Shown: positions 15,936 to 43,952, numbered from the stretch's first letter. The stretch is DNA of 64,000 nucleotides from an uncultured Candidatus Saccharibacteria bacterium (GCA_964436545.1 CAYTCJ010000003.1:70041-134040); one strand, 5' to 3'. A program made the numbers and translations. The notes: generated by a model from the letters alone, not told the origin.

Positions 15936-17747
15936 TTAATTTCCAATGTTGCTCTGCTGGGCCCAAAAAATTAATTGACCGGTTTGGTTGCCAGGGTTAG
16001 CGCCTTGAGGGATGGTTAACGAACTTTCAATTACCGCTGTTTGACTGCCGGATACGGTTTTTTTGAATTGTTTCCAAAATTTACCTTCCAGAAGTAAGTT
16101 ATCCTTAAAGATGGGTCCGGTTTTAACCTCGGCTTCAAAGACTAAGGCTTTACTGCCTTGGTTTTTTAACGTTAAAGCTTTTTTGGCAGTTTGTCCACCC
16201 TTAAGTTGTCCAAAACTTAAACTGCCCGGTTCAATGGCAAAGGCAATAGTTTGGTTCGCCGGATTAGTAGTGGAGGCGCCCGCAACCGATCCGCTTTGCA
16301 CATCGACACTTAAATCTATGCCGGCAGTGCCGGGATTGCCGAATTTTAGCAAAGTTTTGGCGCTTCGGACAAACCCAGGTTTTTCCCCATAAATTTTATA
16401 GTAGCCATCGGGTAGGGAGAAGCTTACTTTGCCTTGGGAATTGGTGTTTGTGTCCGTAGTCAGGGGTGAAATTTTTACATTAGCCTCGGGCTTGTTAGTA
16501 GTGTCTTGGGATTCTACTAATAAATCTACATTCTGCCCGGAAGTTATTTCGGTAGGGGTAGCGGTAAGCTTTAACGGTTTTATGGCAATGTCGCCATAAG
16601 CCCAGAGCACTTCATCGCCTTCTTTAAGTTGATAATCTGTGGCGGATTGGTTTAACTTCACCAAATTTACCCAGTATTGCCAACCGCTATTTCCGCTGGC
16701 TTCTTCGGCGTTAATTTTAGTTAAATAATTTCCATCTTTAATGTTATAGGTATATCCGCAAAGCGTGGTAGCGGTTTTAATAATGTCCATAGGCGTAGTG
16801 CCCGGGGTTTTGCCTTCGCAAATGGTTTCGCTTAAGCCTTCAATTCTAAAGTTGTACTGGAGTTTAACCGGCGTAATAATGTTTAGCGGGAGAGTTTTGC
16901 CTTCTAAGGCAATTATGGCCCATGCGGTATTGTCGGCACTTAAAGCATTTTCTCCCAAACCCGGATAGATAAAATAACCAAAAGTGTGCTGGTAGCTTTC
17001 TAAATAATCTTTGGGAGTTTTTCCGGACTTTTGCCAATCTGCCAAATTGGCTTTTAAAGCATTCAGCGTCCACATAACCCAAGCGGTAGAAGAGGTGTCG
17101 CTGTCCGTGCCCCATTCAGATTTTGGGTCATAGGTAAAACCGCCATCAGAATTCTGACAGGTTTTTAAAAAGTTAATGGCAGATGTAATTTTTGTATCGG
17201 TAGGGGAGATGCCCACGGCGAGTAAGGCTAAGATGGCAGAAGCCGTAGTGTTAGAATCACTGGAAGCCGACAAGGCATAACCCCAGCCACCATCGGAACT
17301 TTGTTTGGCTAAAACAAATTTTTTGGCATCTTCAATTATGCTATCGTTAAGCGGTTCGCCCGAGGCGACTAAAGCCAAAATGCCAAAAATGTCATCGTTC
17401 ACGGTTTGGGTATCGCCAATTTGGTTAGCCGTGTAAAAAGTTTTTAATTTGGCGACTAAATCTTGCGAACCGAATTTTCTGGGGTCTTGACCAACGGCAG
17501 TAATGGCTAAAATCGGTTTGGTAAAATCAATGGCATGGGTGCCGGAAACAGTTTTTAAATAATCCAAATCCAAACCGGTTTTCCCTAAAGCGGTAAGTCC
17601 CATAGTTGACCAGCCGTTATTGCTGTGGGCCAATAAATATTTTTCGGCTGAAGTTTTGTCGTAAGCTTTCGCAACTGTGAGCGGAGAAAAAAAGCTCAAG
17701 GTCAAGCTTAAGAGTAGGAGACTGGCATAAAACGATTTGCTTTTCAT
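15936..17747 (-). CDS. secreted protein with prenyltransferase/squalene-cyclase-like (alpha/alpha-toroid) repeats and C-terminal beta-rich domains
   Basis: Signal peptide MKSKSFYASLLLLSLTLSFFSPLTVAKA. Repeated motifs SSDGGWGY and QNSDGGFTY resemble terpenoid-cyclase/prenyltransferase repeats. Confidence 0.65.
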   Translation of the reverse strand: MKSKSFYASLLLLSLTLSFFSPLTVAKAYDKTSAEKYLLAHSNNGWSTMGLTALGKTGLDLDYLKTVSGTHAIDFTKPILAITAVGQDPRKFGSQDLVAKLKTFYTANQIGDTQTVNDDIFGILALVASGEPLNDSIIEDAKKFVLAKQSSDGGWGYALSASSDSNTTASAILALLAVGISPTDTKITSAINFLKTCQNSDGGFTYDPKSEWGTDSDTSSTAWVMWTLNALKANLADWQKSGKTPKDYLESYQHTFGYFIYPGLGENALSADNTAWAIIALEGKTLPLNIITPVKLQYNFRIEGLSETICEGKTPGTTPMDIIKTATTLCGYTYNIKDGNYLTKINAEEASGNSGWQYWVNLVKLNQSATDYQLKEGDEVLWAYGDIAIKPLKLTATPTEITSGQNVDLLVESQDTTNKPEANVKISPLTTDTNTNSQGKVSFSLPDGYYKIYGEKPGFVRSAKTLLKFGNPGTAGIDLSVDVQSGSVAGASTTNPANQTIAFAIEPGSLSFGQLKGGQTAKKALTLKNQGSKALVFEAEVKTGPIFKDNLLLEGKFWKQFKKTVSGSQTAVIESSLTIPQGANPGNQTGQLIFWAQQSNIGN

Positions 17748-17816
17748 ATTTTTTAAAATTAATAATTATTTTTTTGCTTTAAAATTTTAGGGGATAGGAC
17801 TCCGCCAGCTGGCGGA

Positions 17817-18033
17817 TAGGTCATATAGGTCGTATAAGTCGTATAAGTCTTATTTGTCACATATGTCCTATCTGTCGCATATGTCCCATCTGTCTTATTT
17901 GTCCCATACTTCTTTTTTTATATGTCCTATTTGTCTCATCTGTCCTATTTGTCGCATCTGTCCTATTTGTCCCATATTTCATTTTTCTTATTTGTCCTAT
18001 TTGCCACATTTGTCCCATATGTCCTATTGTCAG
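17817..18033. repeat. Array A: ~24 tandem copies of an imperfect 9-bp unit (consensus TNTGTCCYA, e.g. TATGTCCTA/TTTGTCCCA)
   Basis: Direct reading gives ggtcatata ggtcgtata agtcgtata ... tatgtccta tctgtcgca tatgtccca .... The period is strictly 9 bp. The 17854..18210 ORF is a translation artefact of the array. Confidence 0.85.
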
Positions 18034-19184
18034 GCTTTAGAGAATCTTGCGAAAAAAAATAAATCGTTGCCAAAGCAACGATATAATTTATCCTGCTTCG
18101 GGAAATTTCTACAATCCAAAATAGACCAGACTCGTTTTGCCAAAAGTGGCAAACATTACTGTTGCGGCACAGTCCCGGAATATTATCCTACTTCGTTTAA
18201 AGCTTCGTAGGATATTCACCAGAGTTCCTTTTTTGAATTACTTAAATTGTTTTCTAACAATACTCCGAATAAAATAATTTGTCAAAATTTGGTCAACTTA
18301 GCTGTGGATAATTTAACCTAAAGTTATGCGAAAACGTGTCCCTAAAACAAATTTTTAGCAATATTGCGTGGAACAGATAATTTTAAACAAAAATCGATTA
18401 AGTTCACAGTTTCATTATAGTTTCAGAGAATATATAACTTTTAATTTTTGCGACAATACAATATAAAAAGTATAAGTAGATTATTACTCAAATTTTGTAA
18501 TGGGTTACCAGCCAAAGAATTCATTTCCTGAATTTTATAGTTTATAAGTCTGGAGACTAAGAACAAAAACTTCAATTAAATTAAAAGCGCAACAAACTTT
18601 ATTGGAGTTTGGGTTATAGCGTATCCGAGATTTTACTTTTTCTGCGCTTATTTTAAAGGAGACGTATTTTGTAGGCAATTTTCTGCAAAACCTAATTTTC
18701 AAATATTTTGCATGCTTAAAATTTTAATTGAGTGAAAAAATGTCAAAATCTTTGTTTTAAGATATAAGACATTCAGCCATTTGGCTAAGTTGGGTGTGTT
18801 AGCTAACTTAAGTTAAGCTTTTAAATTGATTGTATTTAGTTTCACGTAGGAAAATCTATTTATAGGATTTTTTTTTCAATTTTCGTGAATAATTATATTA
18901 AGGATATTGCCATATATTTAATAGCGACAAAAATAAAATTTAGGCTTGGTTTTAAAAACCAAATTTAAGTATTTAGGTATAAATTTAAATTAGGGTTAGT
19001 ATTAAATTTATGTTGTAATGAGTGAAACATACTTTTGTAAAAAATTTTGTGTTTTTTACAAAATTTTTTTGCTTAAAAGTCTTTAAAAACTTGTTTAAAA
19101 AAAGTATAATATATATATAAGTTAAATTAATAAATCGGATATCCGAGATTAACTAAATCCACTTAAGAATAAGCGAAGTTTAAA

Positions 19185-22100
19185 GTGAAAGATACAAAAA
19201 GCAAAAATCAAAATAATTTCATTTCTTTATCTGAAGCAAGTGAAAAAACCGGGTATCACCAAGACTACCTTGGTTTTTTATGTAGAACTGGAAAGCTGGA
19301 AGGTTTTAAAATTGGCAGAAATTGGGTAATCACTCAGTCGGCTTTGGAAAGCTTTTTGGCCAATAACGCCAGTGGGCAAATTGAAGCCGTGCAGACCGTG
19401 CCGGTGAAGGTTATTGCACCTTCGGCGTCTGTCCCTGTGCCGGAAGTGAGGGCAGTAAGCCAAGAAGTGGAAAAGAGTAAACATGATCTTTCCAATTTGA
19501 AAAGAAAAGTTTTTGAAGATTTAAATTACCGCATAGGTAACTTAAATACTCAGCTCAATGAACTGGACGCTAAATTGGCTAACAGTCAAAAAGCGGTGGC
19601 TTTGCCGAATCAAGTCGCCACGGTTTCCACTCCGGTTTTACCTGCCGAAGATTTTGAGCCAAAAATCAAGCCGGAACTGAAAACTAAATTTGCTTCGGCT
19701 TTGGCTGTGGCTTCTAACCTGGAACCGGAGGAAAAAACTTTTGCTCCGCTTTCGGTGTTAAGCAAAGATGCTTTGTTAAAACTCAAAGAAAGTTTTCGGG
19801 TTAAGGCCAGAAATAATTTTTTGGCCCCGAGCTTGGCTATGGGTGTGGCGGTGTTGGCTTTTGTTTCTACCGTGGCGTGGAATTATTTGCAGGAAGATTT
19901 GTATAGAAATTATCAAACGCCGGCTGTGGTTTATAAAAATAATTTTGTGCCCCAGAGTCAACCCGCTTCCAGCACACCACCGGTCATAATTCAAAACGGT
20001 AACCAAATTGTCATTCGGGACAGATTCACCACCGAGACTGTGGTGAAGTCTTTGTCAGCCGATGCTAACTTGGTGAATCAACTGATAGACCAGAGATTAA
20101 ATAAATATTTGGCCGAAGGAAAATTTAAAGGTGAAAAAGGCGACACGGGCGCTCAGGGTCTGCAAGGCAGTAATGGTCAAACCGTGGGCGCTGGCGGGTA
20201 TGTGCCGTATGCCTATTACGCGCCGGTGCCGGCGAATAATTTTACCGGTGGCACAAGTTTGTCTTCCACCCAACTCTCCGCGAACAGCGGAGTAATTACC
20301 ACTTTAAGCGTGGGTGACCTTACCACAACGGGCAATGCGAGCATTGGTGGAACATTAAATGTTTCGGGCAATACGGGTTTATCTACCGCGAACATTACCA
20401 CACTCAATGTTGCTGGCACATCTAACTTGGCTACCACGACCATTAGTCAATTAAATATTTCCGGCAATGCGACCACCACGGGTAATTTAACGGTGCTGGG
20501 CACTTTTAATTTAAGTGGTTCGCTGTCTTCGGCTAGTGGCACTTTTTCCACCTTAGTGGTGAATGGCAATGCCACCACCACAGGTAATGCTGTGGTATCT
20601 GGCAATCAGCTAATTAGTGGCACATTGTCGGTGGTGGGCACTTCCACTTTAGCGACTACTTCTTTATCCGTGTTATCTGTGTCTGGTGCTCAATCTGTGA
20701 TAGGCACTTCTACTCTGGCGACCACCACCATTACAAATTTGTCTGTGTCCGGCAATTCCACTTATACCGGCAATTTAACTTTAGCTACCATGACACCGGG
20801 GTCGGTAATTTTTGCCGGGGTGGGTGGAGTGTTAAACCAAAATAATTCTAATTTTTTCTGGGATGATGCCAACAAATATTTTAACCTTGGCACTAACACC
20901 ATTTCTTCCACTCTTGCCATTCAAGGCAGTGGAGCGGTAAATCCTTTAACCATTGCTTCTTCTACGGGCACCACTTTGCTTACCGTTTTACCCACTGGCA
21001 ACGTGGGGATTGGGACGACAAATCCAGGGAATAAATTAGAAGTCAATGCGGGAGATATAAATATCATTGGCTCTGGTCAAGCATATCGTCAGGGGGGGTC
21101 GTGGCTCATAGGTATGCTTGGTACTTCAGCTTATGTTGGGGGTGGTTTGAGTGGTGATTTGCAATTGGGTGCGAATGCCAATGGTCAAATTACCATTAAA
21201 AATGGTGGCAACGTGGGCATTGGCACCACGACGCCATCAAGTCGATTGGATGTGTATGGTGCTCAGAGTGCTATCTCAGCAACAATTTACGGAGGCTCAA
21301 CAGTTGATAGCGCTCGCCGATCAGGTACACTGGCTCTTGGTGATGATACTACTGCTCAAGGCCGACTAAGTTATGGATATGGTTCAGGTGTACTTTATTT
21401 GGACAATACATACAATCATGCTAATGGTGATATTTACGTCCGAACTCAAACATCGGGTACACCAGTTAATGCATTAGTTGTAAAAGGTGGCGGTAATGTT
21501 GGTATTGGCACTACCACTCCGGGAGCTTTGTTGCAGGTTGCAGGTACATCCGCTAACCCCAGCAATGCCAATGGTCAATTGCGAATTAGCGACAATAGCA
21601 ATGGAATAAAGCGTTTGTTGCTTGGTGTAAATACTTCTGCTTCCACGATGTATAGCTTTATCCAGTCAGTGGAGGCAGGGAATGCCTGGCGCGATTTAGT
21701 TCTACAACAAGAAGGTGGCAACGTGGGTATCGGCACCACGACTCCGGGTGCGAAGTTGCAGATTTATCCGAATGCCAATTCCACTATTGGTCTGATTGTG
21801 CAGGCCGATAACAACGGAGCTTCTAATATACAGCAGTGGCAACAGGCTAACGGCACATTGGTGGCCGCGGTTGGTAACAACGGTTCAATTGGGATTTTAG
21901 ACGGTTCCAAAATTTTGCTTGATGGGTTGTCCGGGTCTTCGTATTTGCAGGAGTCTGGTGGTTTGAATATAGTTTCCGGTTCCGGCAGGGATATAGTTTT
22001 AAGCGCCGGTGCCGGTGGTGAAAGACTAAGAATAAAAAATGACACCGGCAACGTAGGCATTGGCACCACGAGTCCTTCTCAGGCTTTGGAAATTAATGGT

Positions 22101-25100
22101 AATTTAAGATTCACTAACGCTGGTTCTTGGATAGATTTTGGGAATAATAAGTCCATTTACAATTACAACAATAATTTAAACTTTATTAATGGTGGTCCTT
22201 CTAATTCGGTTGTAATGACCATTGCCAATTCTAGCAACGTGGGGATTGCCACCACAACCCCACAGGCCAGATTGTCCGTGCAAGGTACGGGGACAGGTGG
22301 TGCTTTGTCATTTGCCACTTACAATTCCAACGCCCAGGATATTTTAACAGTCACTGATAATGCTAACTTGCAAATTGGCAGTACAGCCGGAAATATTGCC
22401 GGCACACTTACCGTTTATAACGGCAGTAGCGGGGATTTTAGCATAGCCGGCAATACTAGTACCGGGAACGTCACTATAAATAACGCAAACTCTGCCGGGG
22501 GAGATATTAACATCCAAACTCGTGGCACTTCTGCCATTTATGTAAAGAATGGGGGTAACGTCGGCATTGGCACAACTTCACCTTTAGCTAAGTTAGATGT
22601 GTATGGCAATTTGAATGTTGCCACAGGTTCTACTCCTACTTTGTTTGTAAATACTGCAACAGGAAATGTTGGGGTTAATACTACTAATTTAACGGATAAT
22701 TTTACAATAAAACCAACAAGTGCCGGGAAAGGTTTGGTAATTAGGGAGTCTGATGATGGTAATGAGGCTATAAGAGCTCTGGGTTTTACTGCCGGTGGGT
22801 TACTGTCTTTGCAGACCGGTGGTGTGAACTCCATTTATTTTGATGCTACCAGTGCATCGGGTATAACCTATTTTAATACCGGCAATGTGGGCATTGGCAC
22901 AACAACTCCACTTAGCAAATTAGCTGTAGTAGGCACCGCTGGTGCCAATCCCATTTTAGATTTAGCTTCCTCCACCGGCACATCGGTTCTTAGAGTGGCA
23001 GAAAGTGGAAATGTGGGGATTGGCACAGCGAGTCCAAGTGCGAAGTTGGATGTACAAGGTGGTTCTGGTCTTGCATTGATAGCAAGAGGTGGGGATTTGG
23101 GTTCGGGAACGACAATTTTTACCGTTCAAAATAATAGTGGCACGGGAATGTTCAGCGTGAGGGGGGATGGAGGAACGGGTATTTATACTGGATTGGGTAT
23201 TGGTTCAACATATGCTGGCACTCAACCACCAACAAACGGGGCGATAATTCAAGGAAATGTTGGTATTGGCACTAGCGGGCCTTCGGCTCCTTTGGAAGTT
23301 AGAGGTACAGCAAATAATGGTTCAGTTCAGACTGTTCAGTATTTAATTAATCCAGGAACAGGAAATGGGACTGGGGCTCAATTAGCAATAGGTTATTCAA
23401 CTAGTAGTGCAACACAGTACGGAGCTATTCAAGGGTATTATGATTCTACTTTAGGAGGTACTAAATTAGGACTGGTTGCAGGAGGTACAACTTTCTTGAC
23501 CGGAGATAAAAATGGCAATGTCGGTATTGGCACCACCACTCCACTTAGTAAATTAGCTGTAGTCGGCACAGCTGGTGCAAATCCCATTTTAGATTTAGCG
23601 TCATCTACTGGAACGAGTGTGCTTAGAGTAAGTGAAGCGGGGAATGTGGGGATTGGAACGACTACACCAAATGTTGGTTTATTGATAAATAAAGTTGGCA
23701 CTTTGTATGGTTTGAGTACTGCACTGCAAATTCAAACAGGAGCAATCCTTGCACCAAATAATAATGGTTTGTACACAGTTAATGCTGCTGGTACAGATGT
23801 TGTTCCGCTTATAAAAAGTGATACATCAAATAATACATGGATAAACCCAGGGGGTGCTGGTGTTATTAGATTTGGTGCCGGCGGTAGTAATGAATATATG
23901 AGACTGGATACAAATGGTAACCTAGGCATTGGCACCACCACCCCTCTAACCAAGTTAGTGGTAGCTGGAGCTACTAATAGTGGTATTACTCCCACAACAG
24001 GCACTTCGTTAACTTTAGACAGTATTAGCACAGACAACTATTTGACTGTTATAAGTAATTCCGCAAGTAACGCGGGACTTATATTTGGCAGTCACTCGTC
24101 GGCTTTTACCGGAGCTGTGGTGTATAACAATCCCAACAGTCAAATGGCCTTTAAAGTAGGTGGAAACAGTACCAAGATGGTTATAGATAGCAGTGGAAAT
24201 GTGGGCATTGGGACTACAACTCCTACAGGAATAATTGATGTAGTCGGTGGAAATAATGCTTATACTTATTTTAGAGGTGCAAGTGGACAACCTGCAATTC
24301 GTCTTCAGAAATTGGATTCAGCCACGGAGTTTTTAATCCGTGCACAGTCTAACGGTACAAGCCTTGAAAATTCGCTTGGGTCTGAACATTTATTTATTAC
24401 CACTGCTGGCAATATCGGCATCGGCACCAGCACCCCCGGTCGGACACTTTCTGTTGTAGGTGACATAAGAGCCACGGGTATTTTGTATGATTCATCTAAC
24501 TCAGCTGGCACGAGTGGGCAATTCCTTATGACTACTGCTACCGGTTATGCTTGGACAGCTACATCTACATTATTTGGTGGTAACCAAATCACCGGCAGTG
24601 GCACTAATGGTTATGTAGCTCGTTTTACTGGAGCCAACACTCTCTCTACCGGAGTCTTAATAGACAACGGCACAGTGGCTGGAGTGAATGCCACATCTTC
24701 CAGCTATACTTTTAACCTTCAGGGCGCTAGTGGTAAAGCCCCTTTAAACATTGCTTCTTCCACCGGCACTTCACTTTTGGTAGTGGACCAGACTGGGAAT
24801 GTGGGGATTGGGAATACCTCACTATTTTCAAAATTAAATATCATTGGTGATATTGGGCAATACTCTTCAAGTACAACAAGTGCAGGTTCTCCGTTAGGAA
24901 GCTCATTATATCTAGGAGATATTAATTTTTACAACAGCTTGTATTATAACAGTGCTCCAGGATTGAGTGCGGTTTATGACTCTGCGCACAATGTAGCAGC
25001 GGCATTGGCTTTCTATACTTATACAGGTAATCAGAATTCAAGAACAGAAAAAATGAGAATTACAAGTGCTGGCAATGTCGGTATTGGAACGACAAGTCCC

Positions 25101-28100
25101 TCGGCAAAATTGGCCATTGAAGGTTCAGATGTGAGATTAAATTTAAGTGATACTAGTGGTTCGGCACAATCCTTGATTGCCTTGCAAAGCTCTGGTGCGA
25201 CAAAATGGTTTACAGGAAAAAATGCTTCTAATGATTTTATTATTTATGACAATGTTGCATCAAGAAATGCTTTGCGTATAGCTCAAAGTGGCAATCTATT
25301 TTTGCAAGAAGGTGTCGGCAACGTGGGTATTGGCACCACGACACCAAACTGGAAATTGCAAGTAAGTTCTTCCGCTACATACAACAACGATGCCGGTGGG
25401 GCTTTTGCCATTACCGATTCCACCACACCGACTAAAAAAATCTTTTTAGGATACGATGCTTCAAACGATGTTGGTTTTATAAACACTGTGCAAACCGGAG
25501 TAGCCAATAAAAACTTAGCCATAAATGCTTCCGGAGGAAATGTCGGTATCGGCACAACATCAATGGCGGTTAAGCTTGTAGTGGAAGGCAATACTAATTT
25601 ATTAGGCACCAATAATGATGGCGGGGTTGCCACCTCGGCTTTAAATGTTAACGGTGCTTTTATGACCATTGGTGATTATTCTGGTGCACAAACTTTTTCT
25701 AATGGTATTGGAATTAAATTCAACGACACTGGGATTAATCACATGAGTATGAAATATACCCCTAGTGCCGGTAGGTTGGATTTTGGTCCATCGGACACTA
25801 ATTCTTATTTAACTATAAATAGCGGACAAGAAAGATTTAGTATAAATATGACTTCTGGGAATGTAGGCATTGGAACCACCACTCCCCAATACAAACTTTC
25901 AATAGATACTGCTGGTAATGATTATGGTGTAGTAATGGGACAGTCTGGAAGTGCCACTGGTAAAATATTAGGTTTAGGATACTTCCTAACTGGAGATTAT
26001 GGTGTTATTCAAGCGGTTCATCAGGGGACTGCTTATAAGAATTTGGCAATTAACCCGAACGGGGGGAATGTGGGTATAGGCACAGCGAGTCCAAATGATA
26101 AGTTGGAAGTAGCGGGTGGTACAACTGGTCGTGTCTTAATTACAGATGGTGGTGGGGCAAACAGAAAAGCATTAATTTTAGAGCAACCTGGATATAGTGG
26201 AAATTCTTATGCAAGAATAGAAGCTTACGATTATGGAGCTTCATCAGTTAAATCTTTAGCTATAAATGCTCTTGGTGGTAATGTTGGTATTGGCACAACA
26301 ACACCTGTAAGTCAGTTAGAAATCTATCAATCTGCTAATGTAAGTCCACAATTACGAATAGGCAACAACTACTTTAACCGAGGAATTGACTTTGGCTATG
26401 ACACCAATTCCGCCTTTATACAAGGTAAAGCGGATATTCTCTCTGCTCCCATTAGCTATCATCTAGCTTTAAACCCGAATGGGGGAAACGTCGGCATTGG
26501 CACCACCACTCCATCTGCAAAACTTTCTATTGCAGGTAGCACCAATGGAATACACCTTGGTCAGTGGTCAGGTTCATCTGCATACAATGCTCTCTACTTA
26601 AATAGTTCTCCGTCTGTAAATACAACTTATACCCTGCTCGCCAACGATACTGGAAGTGTGTTTTTGAATGCCAATGGTTCAGGTTCTATATATTTAAGGG
26701 AGGATAACAATAATCTGATGACCATAGATAATAATGGAAATGTGAGCAACGTCGGTAATTTGCTTGTAGGAAAAGATGCATCAACCCAAGATGCTTATAT
26801 AGATGTAGGGAATGCACGGTCAGGTAATGGTTATTCTTATGTTGATATTATTGGCGATGCGACTTACACCGATTTTGGTTTAAGATTGATAAGAGGTAAT
26901 GGAGGGGCTAATGCTTATTCTCAACTGGTTCACAGAGGCACAGGCACACTTTCGCTTTACACAATGGAAGCTTCTCCAATAGAGTTTTACACCAACAGTA
27001 GTGCATCAGCTAGAATGCATATTGCGAGTGGGGGAAATGTGGGGATTGGGACAACGGCTCCTGGTAGAAAGTTGGAAGTTAATGGCGGAACAGATACTAC
27101 TGGAAGGATAAGAATTTCTGGGGGTGGTGGTTCTGAACTAATTTCAGGTAATTTGGAATTTTATCACCAAACATCTGACCATAATTATAATTTAGCTATG
27201 GTTAATAACAATACCTTGACTTTGTTCAAAGGAACTTTTGGTGCAACAACCACGCCAATTATGACTTGGGATGGAACTGCGGGGAATGTGGGGATTGGCA
27301 CCACTACCCCACTTAGTAAATTAGCCGTCGTAGGCACAGCTGGTGCCAACCCGATTTTAGACATAGCCTCATCATCATCTACTTCTATTTTAAGAGTAAG
27401 TCATACGGGCAATGTGGGTATTGGCACTACTTCTCCAGCTGGCACCTTAGCCATTAAAGACAGCCTTAGCTCCAGTGGTTATTCTTTAGTGATTAACGAC
27501 TATTATAAATTTAGGGGTGATGGGAGATTTAATTTTGGTAATAATGCAACTCAAGGGGTTCTCTCTTGGGATGCCGGTATAGCTATAGTTGGGGCTCAGG
27601 TAGCTAATGATTTAAGTTTACACGCAGGCGATGTGGAAAAAGTGAGAATTACAACTGCTGGGAATGTTGGTATCGGTCTTAGTTCTCCAACAGCTAGATT
27701 AGAGGTTAGAAACTCTGGTACAGGAGATAGTGCTATATATGTAACCAACACAGTGGGTGGTGCACAAGCAACTCTTGGTGCTTGGTCGTCAAATGATGGT
27801 GCTATGCGACTTTGGAAAGCTGATGGAACAGAAAGTGTTAGACTCTTGGCAAATGGTGCAAGTCATTTAACTGGGGGGAATCTGGGTATTGGCACAGTGA
27901 GTCCTTCTTTTGCTCTTGATGTAAATAGTAATGTGATTGGAGTGGGTACAAAGTCAGCTAATGCGGGTTATGGTGGGCAAATAAGGTATAGAGATGATAC
28001 CGGCACAGCAAGGTGGATGATAGGTCTTAGTGGATCTGCCGGAGCTACGGCTTTGTATAACTCATATAACCTTACAAACGACCAAGTTTACATAACCACC

Positions 28101-30704
28101 ACAGCCAGTGGCAGGGTGGGGATTGGCACTAACCACACCTCCCCACTGCAGGCTTTGTCGGTAGCTTCGTCTTCACTTTCGGCAATTCCGGCTTTAGGCT
28201 TATCTACTGCCAGTGGGCAATTTTCGGTGTTGGGTGATAGCGGAGCTTATGGTTTAAGGGTGGGTGTTCTATCATCCGGTGATGTTTTCCAACAAGTAGA
28301 TAGATTTGACGGCTCTGCAACTGCTTATAACTTACTCTTACAACCTAGAGGCGGTAAAGTGGGCATTGGCGTAACTTCCGCTTCCCAAACTTTGCACGTT
28401 GTAAGCACAGATGCGGTTGAGCCGACACTTGGCACTGCTCCTTCCTCTGGGGTGTCTATGCTGGGCAGTAATAATGCTTATGGTTTGTTTATTGCCAACA
28501 ATGGAACTTCCGGTGCCACGTGGCTACAAAGTATGAGAAACGACAGTGCAGTAGCTTATGCGTTAAACTTACAGCCCAGTGGCGGGAACGTGGGCATTGG
28601 CACATCTACTCCAGCCCAAAAACTGCATATTAGCGGTTCTGATTTATATACTAACGATTACGGTATTTTAACCATCTCCGATTCCAGCTCACCCAAAAAG
28701 CTAATTTCTATGGGAATGGACGGCACCAATAGTGTGGGACACATTCAAGTCGTTAATAGTGGTTCTGCATATTTGCCTTTGGCTTTAAATGGTAATGGCG
28801 GGAATGTGGGTATTGGCACATCTACGCCATTGGCAACTTTGGAAATTTCCGGCACTTCTCCTTTGAGACTAACCCGTCCCGGACTTAACTCATATAATTC
28901 CACCATATCCGGTTTAATGTCCGGCACTTCCAATGGTGATTTATTGTGGGAAACCAACCAAGCCGACGGTGGTTTTGCTTGGCGGGTAAACAGTGGCAAC
29001 ACTTTTGCTCTGGGCATTACCGAAGCGGGGAATGTGGGGGTGGGGACTTCTACACCAACTCAAAAATTGGTAGTCGTGGGAGGTAATATTCGTCTTTCAA
29101 ATAATCAAAGTTTAATGTTTGGTGACTCGGCTGAGGCTGATGTGCCGTTGATAAAAGTTGATACTAGCAATCAAGCATTGTTTACCAATGGAAATAATGC
29201 CGCCTTTATTTTCTCAACCGGTTTCAGTTCTAATGCCAATAATAACTATATTTTCCAAACCAATGGTGGCACTGAGCGAGTAAGATTTCAATATGATGGG
29301 AATGTGGGTATAGGCACAAGTAGCCCACTTCAAGGTTTGCATATTGGCTCTAACGCCAGTGGTAAGAACGTGCAAGTCGCTAATGGCTGGCTGTGTGTGG
29401 ACAATAACGACTCTTGCACCGGTGCTTCTACGGCCGGCACGGTTTACGCGGTAGGCGCATACACCACCGGTGCGGACGTGGCGGAAAATTATCCAACTAA
29501 CGAAAGTTTAGAAGCCGGAGATGTGGTAATGGCAGATGGTGGTTCTCCCATCTTTGTCAAAAAAGCAAATATGACCAATATGTCCAATACGACCTATAGG
29601 TCCAATGCTGTGCTCGGTGTAGTTTCTACTCAGCCCGGTATTTTATTGAATGGCTATAAAGCCCAAGAGTTTAATAGTGCTTCCACTGTGCCGGTGGCTT
29701 TAAATGGGCGAGTGCCGGTAAAAGTTACTAATGAAAACGGCAATATCAAGATTGGCGACTACTTAACTTTGTCTAAAACTTTCCCGGGCTATGCTATGAA
29801 AGCTGTGCATTCCGGCGAAGTAATTGGTCAAGCTTTGGAAAACTTTGAAAACGAAACTATTGGCACATCAGGTAAAATTTTAGTCTTTATGAGTTTAGGC
29901 TTTAGAAATATTAACAACACTTTTGTCTTAGGCGAAGACGATGGGCAATTGGCTAATGCGACCAGTACACCCCCTCTTTTCCAAAGAGGGGGCAGGGGGA
30001 GTTCATTCTTAATAGATCAACGTGGTTCAGGCAACATCTTACAGCTCCAACAAAACGGGGTAGATAGATTCTTGGTAGCCAATGACGGCACTTTGTCACT
30101 GCTCGCACAAACCGCCTCTACCACCAAAAATATTTTAGAAGTAAAAAATGCTTCCTCCACTGTGTTTGCCATTAACGCTCAAGGCGATGCCCAATTTATT
30201 GGCAAGATTATGGTGAGTAAAAATACGGCTGGTACCGCCGTGGTGAAAGAGGGGGATAATTTAGTGAGAGTGACTTTTGAAAACCCATACCCCAGCGTGC
30301 CCAAGGTAATTGTAAGTGTAAATGGTGTGCCGAATTTCTTTTACGGCGTGGTGGATAAGAGCGAAACCGGATTTACCATTCAGCTAAGCGAACAAACCCA
30401 AAAAGAATTCAGTTTTGATTGGGTGGCATTGGTTCAGCCGGAAAATACCCAGTATGAATCGGGCATAAGCTTTATAGTTTCTGCAAACCCTCCGCCGGCT
30501 GAAACACTGCCTCCGGCTTCCGAAACACCGCCCGCAGAAGAACCACCGGCAGAAACTCCTCCGCCGGCAGAAACTTCTAATCCGGACAATTTAACTAACC
30601 CGCCGGCTTCCGAAACACCACCAGCCGAAGAGACTCCACCGGCAGAAAACACTCCACCGGCAGAAACCGGCGGTGAGGTAGCCGGCACACAAACCGGCCA
30701 ATAA
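19185..30704 (+). CDS. Giant (3839 aa) protein. It has an N-terminal excisionase/MerR-like helix-turn-helix, a coiled coil, one transmembrane helix, a short collagen-like G-X-Y run, ~45 tail-fibre-like beta-helical repeats (GNVGIGTTTP...KL.V), a C-terminal fibre-tip/chaperone-like domain and a PPAET-repeat tail.
   Basis: ISLSEASEKTGYHQDYLGFLCRTGKLEGFKIGRNWVITQSALESFL is HTH_17-like. FLAPSLAMGVAVLAFVSTVAWNYL is the transmembrane helix. GEKGDTGAQGLQGSNGQT is collagen-like. GNVGIGT recurs across ~3000 aa. GTG start at 19185. Confidence 0.85.
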   Translation: MKDTKSKNQNNFISLSEASEKTGYHQDYLGFLCRTGKLEGFKIGRNWVITQSALESFLANNASGQIEAVQTVPVKVIAPSASVPVPEVRAVSQEVEKSKHDLSNLKRKVFEDLNYRIGNLNTQLNELDAKLANSQKAVALPNQVATVSTPVLPAEDFEPKIKPELKTKFASALAVASNLEPEEKTFAPLSVLSKDALLKLKESFRVKARNNFLAPSLAMGVAVLAFVSTVAWNYLQEDLYRNYQTPAVVYKNNFVPQSQPASSTPPVIIQNGNQIVIRDRFTTETVVKSLSADANLVNQLIDQRLNKYLAEGKFKGEKGDTGAQGLQGSNGQTVGAGGYVPYAYYAPVPANNFTGGTSLSSTQLSANSGVITTLSVGDLTTTGNASIGGTLNVSGNTGLSTANITTLNVAGTSNLATTTISQLNISGNATTTGNLTVLGTFNLSGSLSSASGTFSTLVVNGNATTTGNAVVSGNQLISGTLSVVGTSTLATTSLSVLSVSGAQSVIGTSTLATTTITNLSVSGNSTYTGNLTLATMTPGSVIFAGVGGVLNQNNSNFFWDDANKYFNLGTNTISSTLAIQGSGAVNPLTIASSTGTTLLTVLPTGNVGIGTTNPGNKLEVNAGDINIIGSGQAYRQGGSWLIGMLGTSAYVGGGLSGDLQLGANANGQITIKNGGNVGIGTTTPSSRLDVYGAQSAISATIYGGSTVDSARRSGTLALGDDTTAQGRLSYGYGSGVLYLDNTYNHANGDIYVRTQTSGTPVNALVVKGGGNVGIGTTTPGALLQVAGTSANPSNANGQLRISDNSNGIKRLLLGVNTSASTMYSFIQSVEAGNAWRDLVLQQEGGNVGIGTTTPGAKLQIYPNANSTIGLIVQADNNGASNIQQWQQANGTLVAAVGNNGSIGILDGSKILLDGLSGSSYLQESGGLNIVSGSGRDIVLSAGAGGERLRIKNDTGNVGIGTTSPSQALEINGNLRFTNAGSWIDFGNNKSIYNYNNNLNFINGGPSNSVVMTIANSSNVGIATTTPQARLSVQGTGTGGALSFATYNSNAQDILTVTDNANLQIGSTAGNIAGTLTVYNGSSGDFSIAGNTSTGNVTINNANSAGGDINIQTRGTSAIYVKNGGNVGIGTTSPLAKLDVYGNLNVATGSTPTLFVNTATGNVGVNTTNLTDNFTIKPTSAGKGLVIRESDDGNEAIRALGFTAGGLLSLQTGGVNSIYFDATSASGITYFNTGNVGIGTTTPLSKLAVVGTAGANPILDLASSTGTSVLRVAESGNVGIGTASPSAKLDVQGGSGLALIARGGDLGSGTTIFTVQNNSGTGMFSVRGDGGTGIYTGLGIGSTYAGTQPPTNGAIIQGNVGIGTSGPSAPLEVRGTANNGSVQTVQYLINPGTGNGTGAQLAIGYSTSSATQYGAIQGYYDSTLGGTKLGLVAGGTTFLTGDKNGNVGIGTTTPLSKLAVVGTAGANPILDLASSTGTSVLRVSEAGNVGIGTTTPNVGLLINKVGTLYGLSTALQIQTGAILAPNNNGLYTVNAAGTDVVPLIKSDTSNNTWINPGGAGVIRFGAGGSNEYMRLDTNGNLGIGTTTPLTKLVVAGATNSGITPTTGTSLTLDSISTDNYLTVISNSASNAGLIFGSHSSAFTGAVVYNNPNSQMAFKVGGNSTKMVIDSSGNVGIGTTTPTGIIDVVGGNNAYTYFRGASGQPAIRLQKLDSATEFLIRAQSNGTSLENSLGSEHLFITTAGNIGIGTSTPGRTLSVVGDIRATGILYDSSNSAGTSGQFLMTTATGYAWTATSTLFGGNQITGSGTNGYVARFTGANTLSTGVLIDNGTVAGVNATSSSYTFNLQGASGKAPLNIASSTGTSLLVVDQTGNVGIGNTSLFSKLNIIGDIGQYSSSTTSAGSPLGSSLYLGDINFYNSLYYNSAPGLSAVYDSAHNVAAALAFYTYTGNQNSRTEKMRITSAGNVGIGTTSPSAKLAIEGSDVRLNLSDTSGSAQSLIALQSSGATKWFTGKNASNDFIIYDNVASRNALRIAQSGNLFLQEGVGNVGIGTTTPNWKLQVSSSATYNNDAGGAFAITDSTTPTKKIFLGYDASNDVGFINTVQTGVANKNLAINASGGNVGIGTTSMAVKLVVEGNTNLLGTNNDGGVATSALNVNGAFMTIGDYSGAQTFSNGIGIKFNDTGINHMSMKYTPSAGRLDFGPSDTNSYLTINSGQERFSINMTSGNVGIGTTTPQYKLSIDTAGNDYGVVMGQSGSATGKILGLGYFLTGDYGVIQAVHQGTAYKNLAINPNGGNVGIGTASPNDKLEVAGGTTGRVLITDGGGANRKALILEQPGYSGNSYARIEAYDYGASSVKSLAINALGGNVGIGTTTPVSQLEIYQSANVSPQLRIGNNYFNRGIDFGYDTNSAFIQGKADILSAPISYHLALNPNGGNVGIGTTTPSAKLSIAGSTNGIHLGQWSGSSAYNALYLNSSPSVNTTYTLLANDTGSVFLNANGSGSIYLREDNNNLMTIDNNGNVSNVGNLLVGKDASTQDAYIDVGNARSGNGYSYVDIIGDATYTDFGLRLIRGNGGANAYSQLVHRGTGTLSLYTMEASPIEFYTNSSASARMHIASGGNVGIGTTAPGRKLEVNGGTDTTGRIRISGGGGSELISGNLEFYHQTSDHNYNLAMVNNNTLTLFKGTFGATTTPIMTWDGTAGNVGIGTTTPLSKLAVVGTAGANPILDIASSSSTSILRVSHTGNVGIGTTSPAGTLAIKDSLSSSGYSLVINDYYKFRGDGRFNFGNNATQGVLSWDAGIAIVGAQVANDLSLHAGDVEKVRITTAGNVGIGLSSPTARLEVRNSGTGDSAIYVTNTVGGAQATLGAWSSNDGAMRLWKADGTESVRLLANGASHLTGGNLGIGTVSPSFALDVNSNVIGVGTKSANAGYGGQIRYRDDTGTARWMIGLSGSAGATALYNSYNLTNDQVYITTTASGRVGIGTNHTSPLQALSVASSSLSAIPALGLSTASGQFSVLGDSGAYGLRVGVLSSGDVFQQVDRFDGSATAYNLLLQPRGGKVGIGVTSASQTLHVVSTDAVEPTLGTAPSSGVSMLGSNNAYGLFIANNGTSGATWLQSMRNDSAVAYALNLQPSGGNVGIGTSTPAQKLHISGSDLYTNDYGILTISDSSSPKKLISMGMDGTNSVGHIQVVNSGSAYLPLALNGNGGNVGIGTSTPLATLEISGTSPLRLTRPGLNSYNSTISGLMSGTSNGDLLWETNQADGGFAWRVNSGNTFALGITEAGNVGVGTSTPTQKLVVVGGNIRLSNNQSLMFGDSAEADVPLIKVDTSNQALFTNGNNAAFIFSTGFSSNANNNYIFQTNGGTERVRFQYDGNVGIGTSSPLQGLHIGSNASGKNVQVANGWLCVDNNDSCTGASTAGTVYAVGAYTTGADVAENYPTNESLEAGDVVMADGGSPIFVKKANMTNMSNTTYRSNAVLGVVSTQPGILLNGYKAQEFNSASTVPVALNGRVPVKVTNENGNIKIGDYLTLSKTFPGYAMKAVHSGEVIGQALENFENETIGTSGKILVFMSLGFRNINNTFVLGEDDGQLANATSTPPLFQRGGRGSSFLIDQRGSGNILQLQQNGVDRFLVANDGTLSLLAQTASTTKNILEVKNASSTVFAINAQGDAQFIGKIMVSKNTAGTAVVKEGDNLVRVTFENPYPSVPKVIVSVNGVPNFFYGVVDKSETGFTIQLSEQTQKEFSFDWVALVQPENTQYESGISFIVSANPPPAETLPPASETPPAEEPPAETPPPAETSNPDNLTNPPASETPPAEETPPAENTPPAETGGEVAGTQTGQ

Positions 30705-30970
30705 GACAAATAGGACGAATAGGACAAATAGGACGAATGGGACAAATAAGACAAATGGGATGAATAAGATGAATGGGACAAGCTGGCGAATAGAAAATAA
30801 GCAAAAAGACAATAAGACAAATAAGACAAATAGGTCGAATGGGACAAATAAGACAAATGGGATGAATGGGACAAGCTGTCAAATAGAAAAAAAGCAATAA
30901 GACATATGGGACAAATAAGACAATATGACCTATACGTCATATTTGTCCTATAAGTCCTATACGACCTATA
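30701..30970. repeat. Array B: ~28 tandem 9-bp units in reverse-complement orientation relative to array A (GACAAATAG/GACGAATGG), flipping orientation at its 3' end
   Basis: It begins at the stop codon of the giant gene: taaGACAAATAGGACGAATAGGACAAATAG.... The last ~40 bp read catatttgtcctataagtcctatacgacctata. The 30434..30940 ORFs are artefacts. Confidence 0.85.
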
Positions 30971-30995
30971 ACATATAAAATTAAAACAAAATTTT

Positions 30996-31637
30996 ATGAC
31001 AGACTTAATAGCACAGCACGGCGGTTATCAAAATTTAAAATCATTTCAAGGAGCGGAAATTATTTTTGATTTGACTTTTGAATTTGTTCAACGCTTTGTT
31101 AAATCATTGAAGTGGAAAGAGCAAATGGAAGGCGCTGCGCGCGGTGGCAAGCAAAATATTGCCGAGGGTTCTAAGACTTCAGGCACATCCAAACAAAGCG
31201 AGTTAAGATTGGTTGATGTTGCCAGAGCTTCTTTAGAAGAATTATTAAATGATTATAAAGATTTTTTGCGCGTCAACAATTTGCTAATTTGGGACAAAAA
31301 CGACAAGCGGATTTTGGCAATTCGAAAACTCGCCTACGCACCCAATAGGTCCTGTAAGTCTTATATGACCTATATGTCAAATAGCGAATCATTCGCCAAT
31401 TGTTTGATTTGCTTAATTCATCAAACCAATTATCTGTTGGACCAACAGTTGCGTGTTTTAGAAAAAGATTTGGCTCTGAAAGGGGACTTTAAGGACCGTC
31501 AAAGGGCAATTAAAAAATCCGCAATGTTGAATGACGGGCCCAGTTTTGAGGAGTTTATTAAATCTTTTGGTTTAAAACGTCTGGAGAATGGACAAGTGGT
31601 AAAAATAAATGATGAAGACAAAATAGGACCAATATGA
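30996..31637 (+). CDS. four-helix-bundle protein family (the kind often encoded in 23S rRNA intervening sequences), with a C-terminal extension
   Basis: YQNLKSFQGAEIIFDLTFEFV...NIAEGSKTSGTSKQSELRLVDVARASLEELLNDYKDFL matches the NIAEGS...ARGSLxEL pattern of the family. 9-bp array units lie inside the CDS at 31343-31383. Confidence 0.65.
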   Translation: MTDLIAQHGGYQNLKSFQGAEIIFDLTFEFVQRFVKSLKWKEQMEGAARGGKQNIAEGSKTSGTSKQSELRLVDVARASLEELLNDYKDFLRVNNLLIWDKNDKRILAIRKLAYAPNRSCKSYMTYMSNSESFANCLICLIHQTNYLLDQQLRVLEKDLALKGDFKDRQRAIKKSAMLNDGPSFEEFIKSFGLKRLENGQVVKINDEDKIGPI

Positions 31638-31762
31638 TCCATAGGACGAATATGTGTCCGATAAGTCCTATACGACAATAAGACAATATGACCTATACGT
31701 CATATTTGACCTATTGGTCCTATAAGACATATACGACCTATAAGACCTATTCGTCCTATGGC
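31622..31762. repeat. Array C: ~15 tandem 9-bp units of the same family in mixed orientation
   Basis: The reading is ataggacga atatgtgtccgata agtcctata cgacaataa gacaatatg acctatacg tcatatttg acctattgg tcctataag .... It spans the stop of 30996..31637 and abuts the stop of the 31765..32250 gene. Confidence 0.8.
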
Positions 31763-31764
31763 TG

Positions 31765-32250
31765 TTAAAACAGTTTTTCCAAGTCTTCCGTCAGGTTAAT
31801 CTCTTGAGTTTTAATTAGGCGGATAAAAAATTTCTTTCCCAGTTCTAAAAATTCTTTTTCAATCTCTTTGTCCAATTCATAGGGAGAGGCCCAAATAGAG
31901 TTCTGCCACTTTTTAAAACCTAACTGCTTTAGTTTGGCTCTTAAAATGTTTCTTACAGCCTTGTGTTTTTCCGGCACATCAAAAATGACCAGTTTCCACA
32001 TGCCATCTTTTTTCGGCACTTTAATTTTTAACAAGGTTAAGCCTTCAGATGTAATTTTCCCCAAGAGTTTATCTTGCTCGTTTTTTTTCTCCACCAAGCC
32101 CGCGCTAATCATGCGGAATAAGGCATTATAAAATTCTTTATAGCTTAGGGTGGGGGCTAAGATTCTATGGAGCGTGGTAAAAGCCACCCAATCGTTTTTT
32201 TGGAGAAAATGTAAAGTGTTAATGGTGAGTTGGTTAAAGGGACGGGACAT
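31765..32250 (-). CDS. winged-helix + PaaX-C/Cas2-like domain protein (mini PaaX-like regulator or nuclease-fold protein)
   Basis: The C-terminal motif is MWKLVIFDVPEKHKAVRNILRAKLKQLGFKKWQNSIWASPYEL, of the form W.LV.FD[IV]PE...R..LR..L...GF...Q.S[IV]W.SP. The N-terminal ~80 aa are winged-HTH-like. Confidence 0.55.
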   Translation of the reverse strand: MSRPFNQLTINTLHFLQKNDWVAFTTLHRILAPTLSYKEFYNALFRMISAGLVEKKNEQDKLLGKITSEGLTLLKIKVPKKDGMWKLVIFDVPEKHKAVRNILRAKLKQLGFKKWQNSIWASPYELDKEIEKEFLELGKKFFIRLIKTQEINLTEDLEKLF

Positions 32251-33731: not shown

Positions 33732-34076
33732 CTATTTTATACTTTTGACTAATTGATCAAACATTTCCGGATGTTGTATGGCGAGTTCGGAAAGCATTTT
33801 GCGGTTAATTTGGATATTTTGCTTTTTCATTACACTGGCAAATTTGCTCCAAGTGGTGCCATTTTCTCTTAAGGCGGCGTTGGTTCTAACGAGCCAGAGA
33901 TTTCTAAAATCTCGTTTTTTGTTCCGACGATCTCGGTAGGCATAGGAATCGGCCTTTAAAAGAGCTTGTCTGGCATAGACAAAATTGGTAGAGCGACGGT
34001 TAGTAAAACCTTTGGCTCTTTTAAGTAAACTTTTTCGGCGTTTGTGGGCAGTGGTGCCACGTTTGATTCTGGTCAT
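33732..34076 (-). CDS. rplT: 50S ribosomal protein L20
   Basis: MTRIKRGTTAHKRRKSLLKRAKGF...YAYRDRRNKKRDFRNLWLVRTNAALR is a canonical L20 sequence. Confidence 0.95.
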   Translation of the reverse strand: MTRIKRGTTAHKRRKSLLKRAKGFTNRRSTNFVYARQALLKADSYAYRDRRNKKRDFRNLWLVRTNAALRENGTTWSKFASVMKKQNIQINRKMLSELAIQHPEMFDQLVKSIK

Positions 34077-34150
34077 ATGAGTTTAGTAGTAAGTAGTAGG
34101 TTGTAAAGTTGTAAGTTACTACAACTTACTCACTTACAACTTACAACTAT

Positions 34151-34345
34151 TTATTTATAAGGGATTAAGCTGTGTAATTTTTGATGAACTCTGCCAAGCA
34201 AAATGTCGCGACGCTTATTTTTGGTAGTTTTGCCGGTTTCTCTGGAATTAAAGTGATTCTGGCCGGTTTTTCGGGTCATTAGTTTACCCGAGCCGGTTTT
34301 TTTAATTCGTTTGCTGGTTCCTTTGTGAGTTTTGACTTTAGGCAT
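34151..34345 (-). CDS. rpmI: 50S ribosomal protein L35
   Basis: MPKVKTHKGTSKRIKKTGSGK... is 64 aa and canonical for L35. Confidence 0.93.
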   Translation of the reverse strand: MPKVKTHKGTSKRIKKTGSGKLMTRKTGQNHFNSRETGKTTKNKRRDILLGRVHQKLHSLIPYK

Positions 34346-34359
34346 AAATTAGTAGTGAG

Positions 34360-34430
34360 CAAAAATGACATAAGTGACAAAAGTGAACAAAAATCAGTGT
34401 AATTTCATTTTCGTCGTTTTTGTCATTTTT
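34360..34430. repeat. Intergenic repeat copy 1 (AAAAATGACA.AAGT ... CATTTTCGTCGTTTTTGTCATT) between infC and rpmI
   Basis: It shares a 22-bp identical block, and the AAAAATGACA head, with 42903-42970. Confidence 0.6.
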
Positions 34431-34443
34431 TAATTTTTTTAAT

Positions 34444-34953
34444 TTACTTTGTTGGGGCAATGGTTATGGAAAATGTTCCACCCATTTTTCTAATGGGCAC
34501 TTCGGTGCGGTAAGGATGGGTTAATAATTTAATGAAGTTATTTAATTGGTCTTTGGCAATCTCGGGAAAAGCTTGTTCGCGACCGCGCATTTTCAGTTCA
34601 ATTTTAACTACATTGCCTTCGGTCAGAAATTCATCTACTTTTTTGGCTTTCACTTCCATATCGTGCTGGCCAATGCGGGTGGAGAGCCACATGGTTTTTA
34701 GCTCGGTTTTTTTGCTTTTCTTCTTTGCTTCGCTTTCCGCCTTCTTTTGTTGGTATTTAAATTTGGCAAAGTCAATGAGTTTGCAGACCGGTGGCTGGGC
34801 TTGAGGAGCGACTTCCACTAAGTCTAAACCATGCTCGTTGGCTAAATTAATCGCTTCGGATAATTTGAAAATCCCGAGCTGTTCACCGGTTTCGGTAATC
34901 ACTCTTACCTCAGGAGCTTTAATTTGCAGGTTTATCTTAACTTTTTGTAGCAC
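34444..34953 (-). CDS. infC: translation initiation factor IF-3
   Basis: NEHGLDLVEVAPQAQPPVCKLIDFAKFKYQQKK is the IF-3 N-domain/linker. The gene order infC-rpmI-rplT is conserved. Predicted GTG start. Confidence 0.9.
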   Translation of the reverse strand: MLQKVKINLQIKAPEVRVITETGEQLGIFKLSEAINLANEHGLDLVEVAPQAQPPVCKLIDFAKFKYQQKKAESEAKKKSKKTELKTMWLSTRIGQHDMEVKAKKVDEFLTEGNVVKIELKMRGREQAFPEIAKDQLNNFIKLLTHPYRTEVPIRKMGGTFSITIAPTK

Positions 34954-43916: not shown

Positions 43917-43952
43917 TTACCAATTATCTTACATATGTAAGATAATTGGTAA
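43917..43952. repeat. 36-bp perfect palindrome, copy 1
   Basis: TTACCAATTATCTTACATATGTAAGATAATTGGTAA, centred on CATATG. Confidence 0.85.

Follow-up and report, generated by a model that had tools for sequence, protein, structure and literature searches.

Among described systems, the intervening sequence (IVS) elements of 23S rRNA appear to be the closest precedent for the locus reported here. In Coxiella, the IVS carries an S23p open reading frame (ORF) between terminal inverted repeats that are cut by RNase III, with tandem GACAGAT heptamers, in two to three strain-variable copies, just 5′ of the ORF start (PMC4990558). IVS elements are viewed as selfish, and the function of S23p is unknown (PMC4990558, PMC11270868). 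ORFs of the family, PF05635, also lie within rRNA insertions of candidate phyla radiation (CPR) bacteria (PMC11270868), S23p of Xanthomonas (2gsc, five chains) is a homopentameric toroid (PMC4990558), and Avd of diversity-generating retroelements belongs to a homologous fold family (PMC10053308). The locus described here lies in 64,000 nucleotides (nt) of DNA from an uncultured Candidatus Saccharibacteria bacterium (GCA_964436545.1 CAYTCJ010000003.1:70041-134040; hereafter the window, with positions counted from its first letter). It is a gene for a 213-amino-acid (aa) four-helix-bundle protein of the S23p/Avd family with a suffix domain, at 30996-31637 on the plus strand, with tandem arrays of a 9-nt repeat before it (array B), in frame within it (C) and at its end (D). 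Comparison with homologous loci shows that this gene and arrays B, C and D make up a self-contained cassette, the arrays being its three cognate clusters of repeats. An earlier note on the same DNA had instead seen two arrays, B and a distant array A, as bracketing a giant gene and its leader.

Repeats of period 9 lie where the earlier note had reported them, far above chance. Tandem Repeats Finder called 17847-18028 (20.9 copies), 30700-30874 (20.1 copies), 30896-30971 and 31661-31750 (10.2 copies); the pattern TNTGTCCYA matched exactly 17 times in the window, 14 of these inside array A or B, against 3.75 ± 2.27 in shuffles, none of 100 shuffles reaching 17. Units were counted by anchoring on an invariant GWC triplet. 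On this count, array B (30699-30973, plus strand; end also given as 30971) has 23 units in 30.6 periods, 18 with GAC and then five with GTC; it reads as about 22 purine-rich ATAGGACAA-type units followed by about five of opposite orientation, and ends 25 nt 5′ of the bundle gene's ATG. Its first unit contains the stop codon of the giant ORF (TAA, 30702-30704), so the observation that the array begins at the giant gene's stop was accurate, as was that of extra units inside the bundle coding sequence: these form array C (31341-31385, plus strand), four units encoding PNRSCKSYMTYMS in the loop that precedes the last long helix. Array D (31612-31762, plus strand) has 15 units of mixed orientation; the 213-aa ORF runs two units into it before the stop TGA at 31635-31637, and array C and these two units are thus translated. 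Array A (17795-18035, minus strand; end also given as 18033) has 21 units in 26.8 periods, 20 with GTC and one with GAC, reading GGACAAATA / GGACAGATG on the minus strand. The opposed orientations claimed for A and B hold for most units, A being mostly GTC and B mostly GAC, but not for the single GAC unit in A or for the final ~45 nt of B, where the orientation reverses.

The period itself is less strict than had been claimed: besides 9 nt, the arrays step by 8, 18, 23, 25, 27 and 31 nt, and higher-order periods of 68 nt in array A and 93 nt in array B overlie the unit. An A-rich interruption motif is common to A and B; together with the higher-order periods, it indicates that the two arrays share an origin and grew by slippage or unequal exchange. 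As inverted copies, A and B show 74-83% complementarity over 46-73 nt, and their longest exact inverted match is 18 nt. Complementarity between B and D is 70% across 71 nt, yet these two also carry a 57-nt direct repeat on the plus strand (30914-30970 and 31677-31733, 91% identical), one copy on either side of the 213-aa ORF. Local hairpins are predicted inside each array, and the window arrays far exceed the three to seven units that are usual in the family.

Several familiar explanations for such repeats were rejected. The arrays are contiguous 9-mers without spacers, in line with the earlier judgement that they are neither an ordinary terminator nor clustered regularly interspaced short palindromic repeats (CRISPR), which are built of 23-50-nt repeats and unique spacers. 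A collagen-like Gly-X-Y coding repeat was ruled out, since the Gly frame of array B meets stops and no long ORF crosses the arrays. The units resemble the TTGACA and TATAAT promoter elements, but a promoter-consensus scan of the window did not flag the arrays above shuffles, and a promoter role was discarded.

The enclosed gene's product is, on profile matches and a predicted fold, an S23p/Avd-type four-helix-bundle protein with a suffix helix. It scored 41.6 bits against TIGR04258 ('four helix bundle suffix'; cut-off 40) and fell below the cut-offs for PF05635 (23.1 against 33.8) and TIGR02436 (20.6 against 24); its close homologues mostly carry a precomputed PF05635 match and are named 'four helix bundle suffix' proteins by their sources. 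The best Protein Data Bank matches of its AlphaFold2 model (mean predicted local distance difference test score, 83.2) were 2gsc and 2rld (probability 1.0; target template-modelling score, 0.72-0.81), and a profile of the bundle protein matched 2gsc with E = 0.0087. At least 7,955 homologues exist. Their alignment contains variable tripeptide-repeat insertions (SYK, NRT/DRT and GPI) at four loop or terminal sites, which arise because 9-mers are translated. Searches for other parts of a system around the gene came back negative. The PaaX/Cas2-like neighbour (31765-32250) was not beside about 170 other cassette loci and was ruled out as a cassette partner; PADLOC and PHROG gave zero matches, and membership of a defence system or phage family was rejected. 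When the surroundings of array A were searched by tblastn for another bundle gene, intact or degraded, translated repeats alone were returned, and contig ends were not in excess near the bundle gene.

Whether the arrays belong to this gene was addressed with loci gathered through the protein: a 25-member alignment, used to scan genomes and metagenomes, yielded 160 loci, from Patescibacteria, Planctomycetota, Verrucomicrobiota, Acidobacteriota, Nitrospirota, Desulfobacterota, Chloroflexota and others. Half-sites (TARGWC / GWCYTA), scored over 161 loci, peaked at three positions: -100 to -1 from the start, in frame at +350 to +375 (more than two per gene) and from -25 to +50 around the stop. In the two flanks their density reached 12.3 and 10.3 per kb, compared with 0.62 per kb in the background, an enrichment of about 20-fold, and the unit consensus, A-TA-r-GWC-c-t, is close to the palindrome TAGGWCCTA. 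The layout was seen directly in examples from Planctomycetota, Acidobacteriota, Verrucomicrobiota and other phyla; in a related patescibacterial locus, L002, the homologue lies between short arrays of the 9-mer and has units at the matching internal position. Among arrays of at least four units in ~1 Mb of cassette loci, 48 of 52 lay within 150 nt of a bundle-type ORF and four of 52 were solo. Cassettes follow closely on upstream genes and lie within operons, as between hsdM and hsdS in locus L072. Most of the 161 loci have the three-site layout without any giant gene; an upstream co-directional ORF of at least 700 aa was present at 22 of 169 loci. Arrays B, C and D thus go with the bundle gene, and the claim that the arrays bracket the giant gene and its leader falls.

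A census from the DNA side was abandoned for want of specificity: among 80 viral-contig loci matching TARGWC(N3)x4, none had a four-helix-bundle gene, and the ten inspected were mostly collagen-like Gly-Pro-Ile/Thr repeats. In one viral contig, L144, about 14 GACCGATAA units form a perfect array (~366-470) directly after a GC-rich hairpin, which we likened to the solo hairpin-plus-array elements described below and not to a collagen-like gene.

The unit is held at the nucleotide level. In 71 genes with a third-position G+C content (GC3) of at least 0.6, Tyr is encoded in the internal cluster by TAT 189 times and by TAC 13 times, the ratio being 172:259 in the rest of these genes (odds ratio 22, p = 2e-42), and Arg in the internal cluster is encoded by AGG. 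Among non-coding flank units of genomes with at least 55% G+C, found by the periodic GWC alone, T at -3 and A at +5 are kept in ~81-96% (also given as 82-92% for T and 81-90% for A). Upstream clusters hold the purine-rich half-site 101 times and its complement 47 times (p = 1e-5). These sequence statistics show that the unit is neither a selected peptide nor junk: the positional, codon and strand results exclude neutral low-complexity DNA and peptide-only selection for the core clusters, and maintenance of the unit as nucleotides marks it as a cis-acting nucleic-acid element.

A divergent PF05635 subfamily, found at locus L011 and with 227 database relatives, uses the same three sites with other 9-mers: G-type units (ATGGGGGAA...) and then their complements (CCCTTTACC...). 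Because of this order, its internal insert reads MGxMGx...PLxPLx. The G arm comes first in every two-armed cluster of this second subfamily (seven loci), and in six of six clusters, from three loci, the sense RNA fold is stabler than the antisense fold and has more G-U pairs. What both subfamilies conserve, then, is the fixed placing of hairpin-prone clusters of 9-nt repeats, the repeat sequence being typical of each subfamily.

Array A stands apart from the cassette, in the leader of a divergently transcribed gene. This gene (15936-17747, minus strand; ATG at 17747) encodes a 603-aa protein with Pfam alpha-toroid and DUF4430 domains, a transcobalamin-like architecture that fits a putative cobalamin-binding protein. 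On the minus strand, the order is a promoter-like site (18285-18257), an adenosylcobalamin (AdoCbl, B12) riboswitch-like aptamer (18253-18082), a terminator hairpin with T-run (18082-18045), array A, the 14-nt GC-rich palindrome CCGCCAGCTGGCGG (17802-17815), which forms the hairpin tip of the array A solo element, and the ATG of the 603-aa gene. The aptamer match (RF01482, 39.7 bits, E 4.6e-6) is below the gathering score of 50, covers the full-length model and has the conserved core. What had been called an ORF-free leader of the giant gene therefore consists mostly of the opposite strand's regulatory region. Orthologous loci retain both the riboswitch with its terminator and the giant gene on the other side, still divergent, and differ in the array: in L291, whose protein is 83% identical and whose gene order is unchanged, array A is absent, while in L292 (74% identical) about ten units surround a similar GC hairpin, a variant of the palindrome. 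A comparable solo array in L002 (12204-12293), after a giant gene, has CCGCCAGCTGGCGG (12228-12241) between its 9-mers. These differences among orthologues, together with the L002 element, show array A to be a solo copy that was independently inserted in the leader of the 603-aa gene and later expanded. On the coding strand of that gene, array A has the purine-rich orientation that B has upstream of the bundle gene, and the two look inverted on the plus strand because A's gene is divergently transcribed. A and B are thus inverted copies, as had been proposed, but not a unit built around the giant gene; they were placed separately, and the bracketing is a by-product. Annotators should note that a leader with regulatory elements can harbour a solo array, which in this case separates a riboswitch from the gene that follows. 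Further copies of CCGCCAGCTGGCGG lie in the window at 54185-54198 and 8069-8082 and in L065 at 2917-2930; it is in frame, encoding PPAGG, in the window's isoleucyl-tRNA synthetase ORF and in an L065 coding sequence.

How does the cassette compare with known systems? With the IVS of 23S rRNA (Leptospira, Coxiella and Xanthomonas-type PF05635) it shares the protein family, short tandem repeats just before the start codon (GACAGAT heptamers in Coxiella, units reading GGACAGATG or GGACAAATA on the relevant strand in the window) and, less clearly, an ORF framed by complementary or inverted sequences. It differs in lying outside rRNA among protein-coding neighbours (a gathering-level Rfam scan of the window returned transfer-messenger RNA (tmRNA) only and no rRNA), in its 9-nt unit, in its three sites, one of them in frame, and in its extra suffix region. 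Alayyoubi et al. reportedly found in 2013 that Avd forms a pentameric barrel and binds both nucleic acid and the reverse transcriptase, and the window cassette recalls it further in following directly on a large surface-protein gene and then a hairpin. A diversity-generating retroelement was nonetheless ruled out: Pfam found no reverse transcriptase among the 34 larger ORFs, and when the whole window was searched for repeats, no pair of template and variable repeats emerged.

Short tandem arrays are read cooperatively by omega on the heptads of pSM19035, by MetJ on 8-bp metboxes and by ParR on parC, while the TRAP ring binds (G/U)AG repeats. The resemblance to these operator, centromere and TRAP systems is in the many contiguous short units, in both orientations, beside a gene for a small oligomeric protein; the cassette units carry a UAG/UAA-like triplet, and by analogy with TRAP a ring-shaped homo-oligomer would be a plausible reader. 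These readers are ribbon-helix-helix or TRAP folds, whereas the window protein is a four-helix bundle, and no known DNA-binding fold for operator-type arrays was found in the window; nor are operator arrays known to lie in frame inside their regulator's own coding sequence, unlike those of the cassette. Repetitive extragenic palindromic sequences (REP), bacterial interspersed mosaic elements and their REP-associated tyrosine transposases (RAYT), like the Rickettsia palindromic elements, share a gene between its own palindromic repeats, intergenic solo copies and tolerated in-frame copies. They are single 20-40-nt palindromes, not tandem 9-mers, solo copies are few here, and a REP/RAYT system (REPtron) was ruled out in that the enclosed gene is a four-helix bundle without a Y1 transposase domain. 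Literature searches by sequence, by family names and by 'nonamer/9-bp repeat' found no description of such arrays, which agrees with the earlier view that no described system is built like this and is absence of evidence only.

The explanation to which we tentatively give most weight, at somewhat less than even confidence, is that the cassette clusters are hairpin-prone cis sites with a sequence-specific reader, for which the simplest candidate is the protein that the cassette itself encodes, presumably as a ring. A purine-rich arm 5′ and a complementary arm 3′ are seen throughout the second subfamily, and in the window's subfamily the upstream excess of the purine-rich half-site only; the clusters would act on the cassette transcript or on DNA. 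The unit is kept across phyla with the cassette as the only common component, which makes the encoded protein the simplest candidate reader. The outcome could be autoregulation, as with TRAP or operator arrays, the propagation of an IVS-like selfish cassette, or both, and the window copies would have reached five to ten times the usual length through slippage or unequal exchange. A cooperative protein-binding role for the arrays, suggested by the earlier note, would be plausible.

Several observations weigh against recognition by the cassette's protein. A five-fold ring is not obviously matched to two-fold palindromic units, and the cassette proteins are only mildly basic (median isoelectric point 8.8). 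The match of unit to subfamily is imperfect, since TAGGWCCTA-type units lie just upstream of a second-subfamily gene in L301. Flanks of the window's subfamily are only slightly more stable when folded than their shuffled versions (z ~ -1), and the sense strand has no advantage. Solo arrays (array A; L002, 12204-12293) persist without an adjacent bundle gene, array length did not vary among ten strain-level contigs of one population, in which the arrays are identical, and, the loci having been gathered through the protein, the direction from array to gene was only lightly tested, in ~1 Mb of flanks.

A broader and more doubtful extension is that S23p/Avd-like proteins outside retroelements may be the trans-acting part of a selfish, self-contained cassette of a kind not described before, in which a ring-shaped oligomer would read the subfamily-specific 9-nt repeats before, inside and after its own gene to control or propagate the cassette; the same extension would cover the solo arrays left in leaders and coding regions of other genes and the spread over many phyla. 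We know of no function assigned since the 1990s to PF05635 proteins outside diversity-generating retroelements. For a family thousands strong, recognition of its own repeats, in RNA hairpin processing or cassette propagation, would be a concrete hypothesis, based on a conserved 9-nt motif at three fixed gene positions and on synonymous-site selection across a large subfamily. The layout found here also accounts for odd annotated peptides in these proteins, such as SYKSYK, NRTDRT, GPIGPI and MGEMGE/PLNPLN, and shows that a nucleotide-level element widely invades coding sequence in frame, as with the Rickettsia palindromic elements.

Of the alternatives, the one that survives best, though we consider it unlikely, ascribes everything to structure: as in an IVS, the clusters would be RNA hairpins that serve as RNase III sites, as terminators or to stabilise mRNA, and so keep a selfish ORF of S23p type apart from the host transcription unit, much as the stem of the 23S rRNA IVS lets the insert be cut out, and protein binding would be unnecessary. 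The Coxiella element, whose S23p ORF lies between inverted repeats cut by RNase III at the first tandem heptamer, speaks for this, as do PF05635 ORFs in CPR rRNA insertions, the fixed arm order of the second subfamily at all three sites, its stabler sense folds (six of six) and the tight placement of cassettes behind upstream genes within operons, such as hsdM-hsdS in L072. It leaves unexplained, however, the conservation of unit sequence across phyla and at synonymous sites; the flanks of the first subfamily lack sense-strand bias and show weak excess stability, and a hairpin within the coding region is hard to fit to an insulator.

Less probable again is that the arrays and the GC-rich palindrome are the ends of a DNA-level mobile element, dispersed repeats resembling REP or miniature inverted-repeat transposable elements that serve as landing pads where the cassette recombines or integrates, with the bundle protein as helper or passenger. 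The variation of array A in presence and size between orthologous loci argues for mobility, as do the solo elements with CCGCCAGCTGGCGG in two genomes, the in-frame copies within other genes, and the occurrence in many phyla of AT-rich units retained in GC-rich genomes. Host sequence is also duplicated over 58-74 nt around the cassette in two loci: in L072 (4848-4913 and 5651-5716) over 66 nt, or 58 nt by BLAST, at 94-97% identity, and in L067 (4557-4630 and 5632-5705) over 74 nt at 90.5% identity; the window ORF has its 57-nt direct repeat around it. By sequence reading, the stretch duplicated in L072 is the 3′ end of an hsdM-type methylase-like gene and would preserve the junction to the next gene. 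Against mobility, such duplications occur in only two of about 160 loci, solo copies are few (four of 52), the strand-specific arm order suggests a role at the transcript level, and no transposase, integrase or reverse transcriptase was found, either in the window or as a regular neighbour of cassettes.

That the arrays are functionless, slippage-prone minisatellites is very improbable. The higher-order periods and very unequal lengths do speak of slippage and unequal exchange, the window arrays far exceed the family norm, and the window genome has other tandem and palindromic repeats; neutral expansion may explain the extra length of the window arrays. For the core clusters this reading is strongly disfavoured by the enrichment at three fixed sites in 161 loci, by the synonymous-site bias, by unit positions conserved in GC-rich genomes and by the fixed arm order.

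Least credible of all is the earlier model, which sees in A and B arrays of operator or iteron type, to which the N-terminal helix-turn-helix of the giant protein might bind, and which has them delimit and control, or invert, the 12.9-kb segment with the giant gene: their complementarity, the start of B at the giant gene's stop and the repeated placement of patescibacterial cassettes behind very large genes suit it, but the three-site layout tracks the bundle gene in loci without giant genes, array A lies 3′ of an opposite-strand riboswitch terminator and is missing from the closest orthologous locus, and the helix-turn-helix is sub-threshold (HTH_17, 23.3 bits against a Pfam cut-off of 27). 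Inversion of the segment is likewise unlikely. The exact inverted match does not exceed 18 nt, less than RecA usually needs to recombine DNA efficiently; Pfam matched no recombinase, transposase or reverse transcriptase family in the 34 larger ORFs scanned; and all three related genomes keep the giant gene and its 603-aa neighbour divergent, in one unchanged orientation.

The giant ORF itself (19185-30704, plus strand; 3839 aa, with repetitive GNVGIGTT motifs) is a neighbour outside the cassette. Near its 3′ end, at 29568-29606 (also given as 29566-29608), it has a further array of four 9-mer units in frame (AATATGACC AATATGTCC AATACGACC TATAGGTCC). It contains about 24 copies of a ~55-nt motif encoding GNVGIGTTTP..KL.V, and its orthologue in L292 (1-9013) has a Peptidase_S74 (tail-fibre chaperone) domain. 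Patescibacterial cassettes of both subfamilies often lie directly 3′ of very large surface-protein genes (up to 4,520 aa), as in L002, L017, L065, L229, L296, L298, L302 and the window; Pro/Thr-rich tails end the upstream genes in the window, L002 and L298, and also a shorter gene in L011.

Other repeats occur elsewhere in the window. Hairpins with tandem-heptamer arms (GTTGTAA / TTACAAC) and tandem 9-mer arms (TGACAAAAG / TTTTGTCAT) lie at 34085-34148 and 34354-34438, intergenic beside the Pfam-confirmed IF-3 gene (34444-34953) and two short minus-strand ORFs (34151-34345 and 33732-34076), which we take, unverified, to be rpmI and rplT. A 38-nt tandem repeat (56238-56323; 2.3 copies, 97% identical), each copy with a TCCTCC...GGAGGA hairpin, is in frame in the isoleucyl-tRNA synthetase ORF (54038-57199). 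The 34-nt near-perfect palindrome TACCAATTAaCTTACATATGTAAGtTAATTGGTA occurs at 43918-43951, 44683-44716 and 57215-57248, the first two copies on either side of a second PaaX_M/Cas2-like gene (43986-44642, minus strand) and the third after the tRNA synthetase gene. The tmRNA gene (45952-46362, minus strand) encodes the tag peptide AIENSWNKVVAAFKAADLVPVVA.

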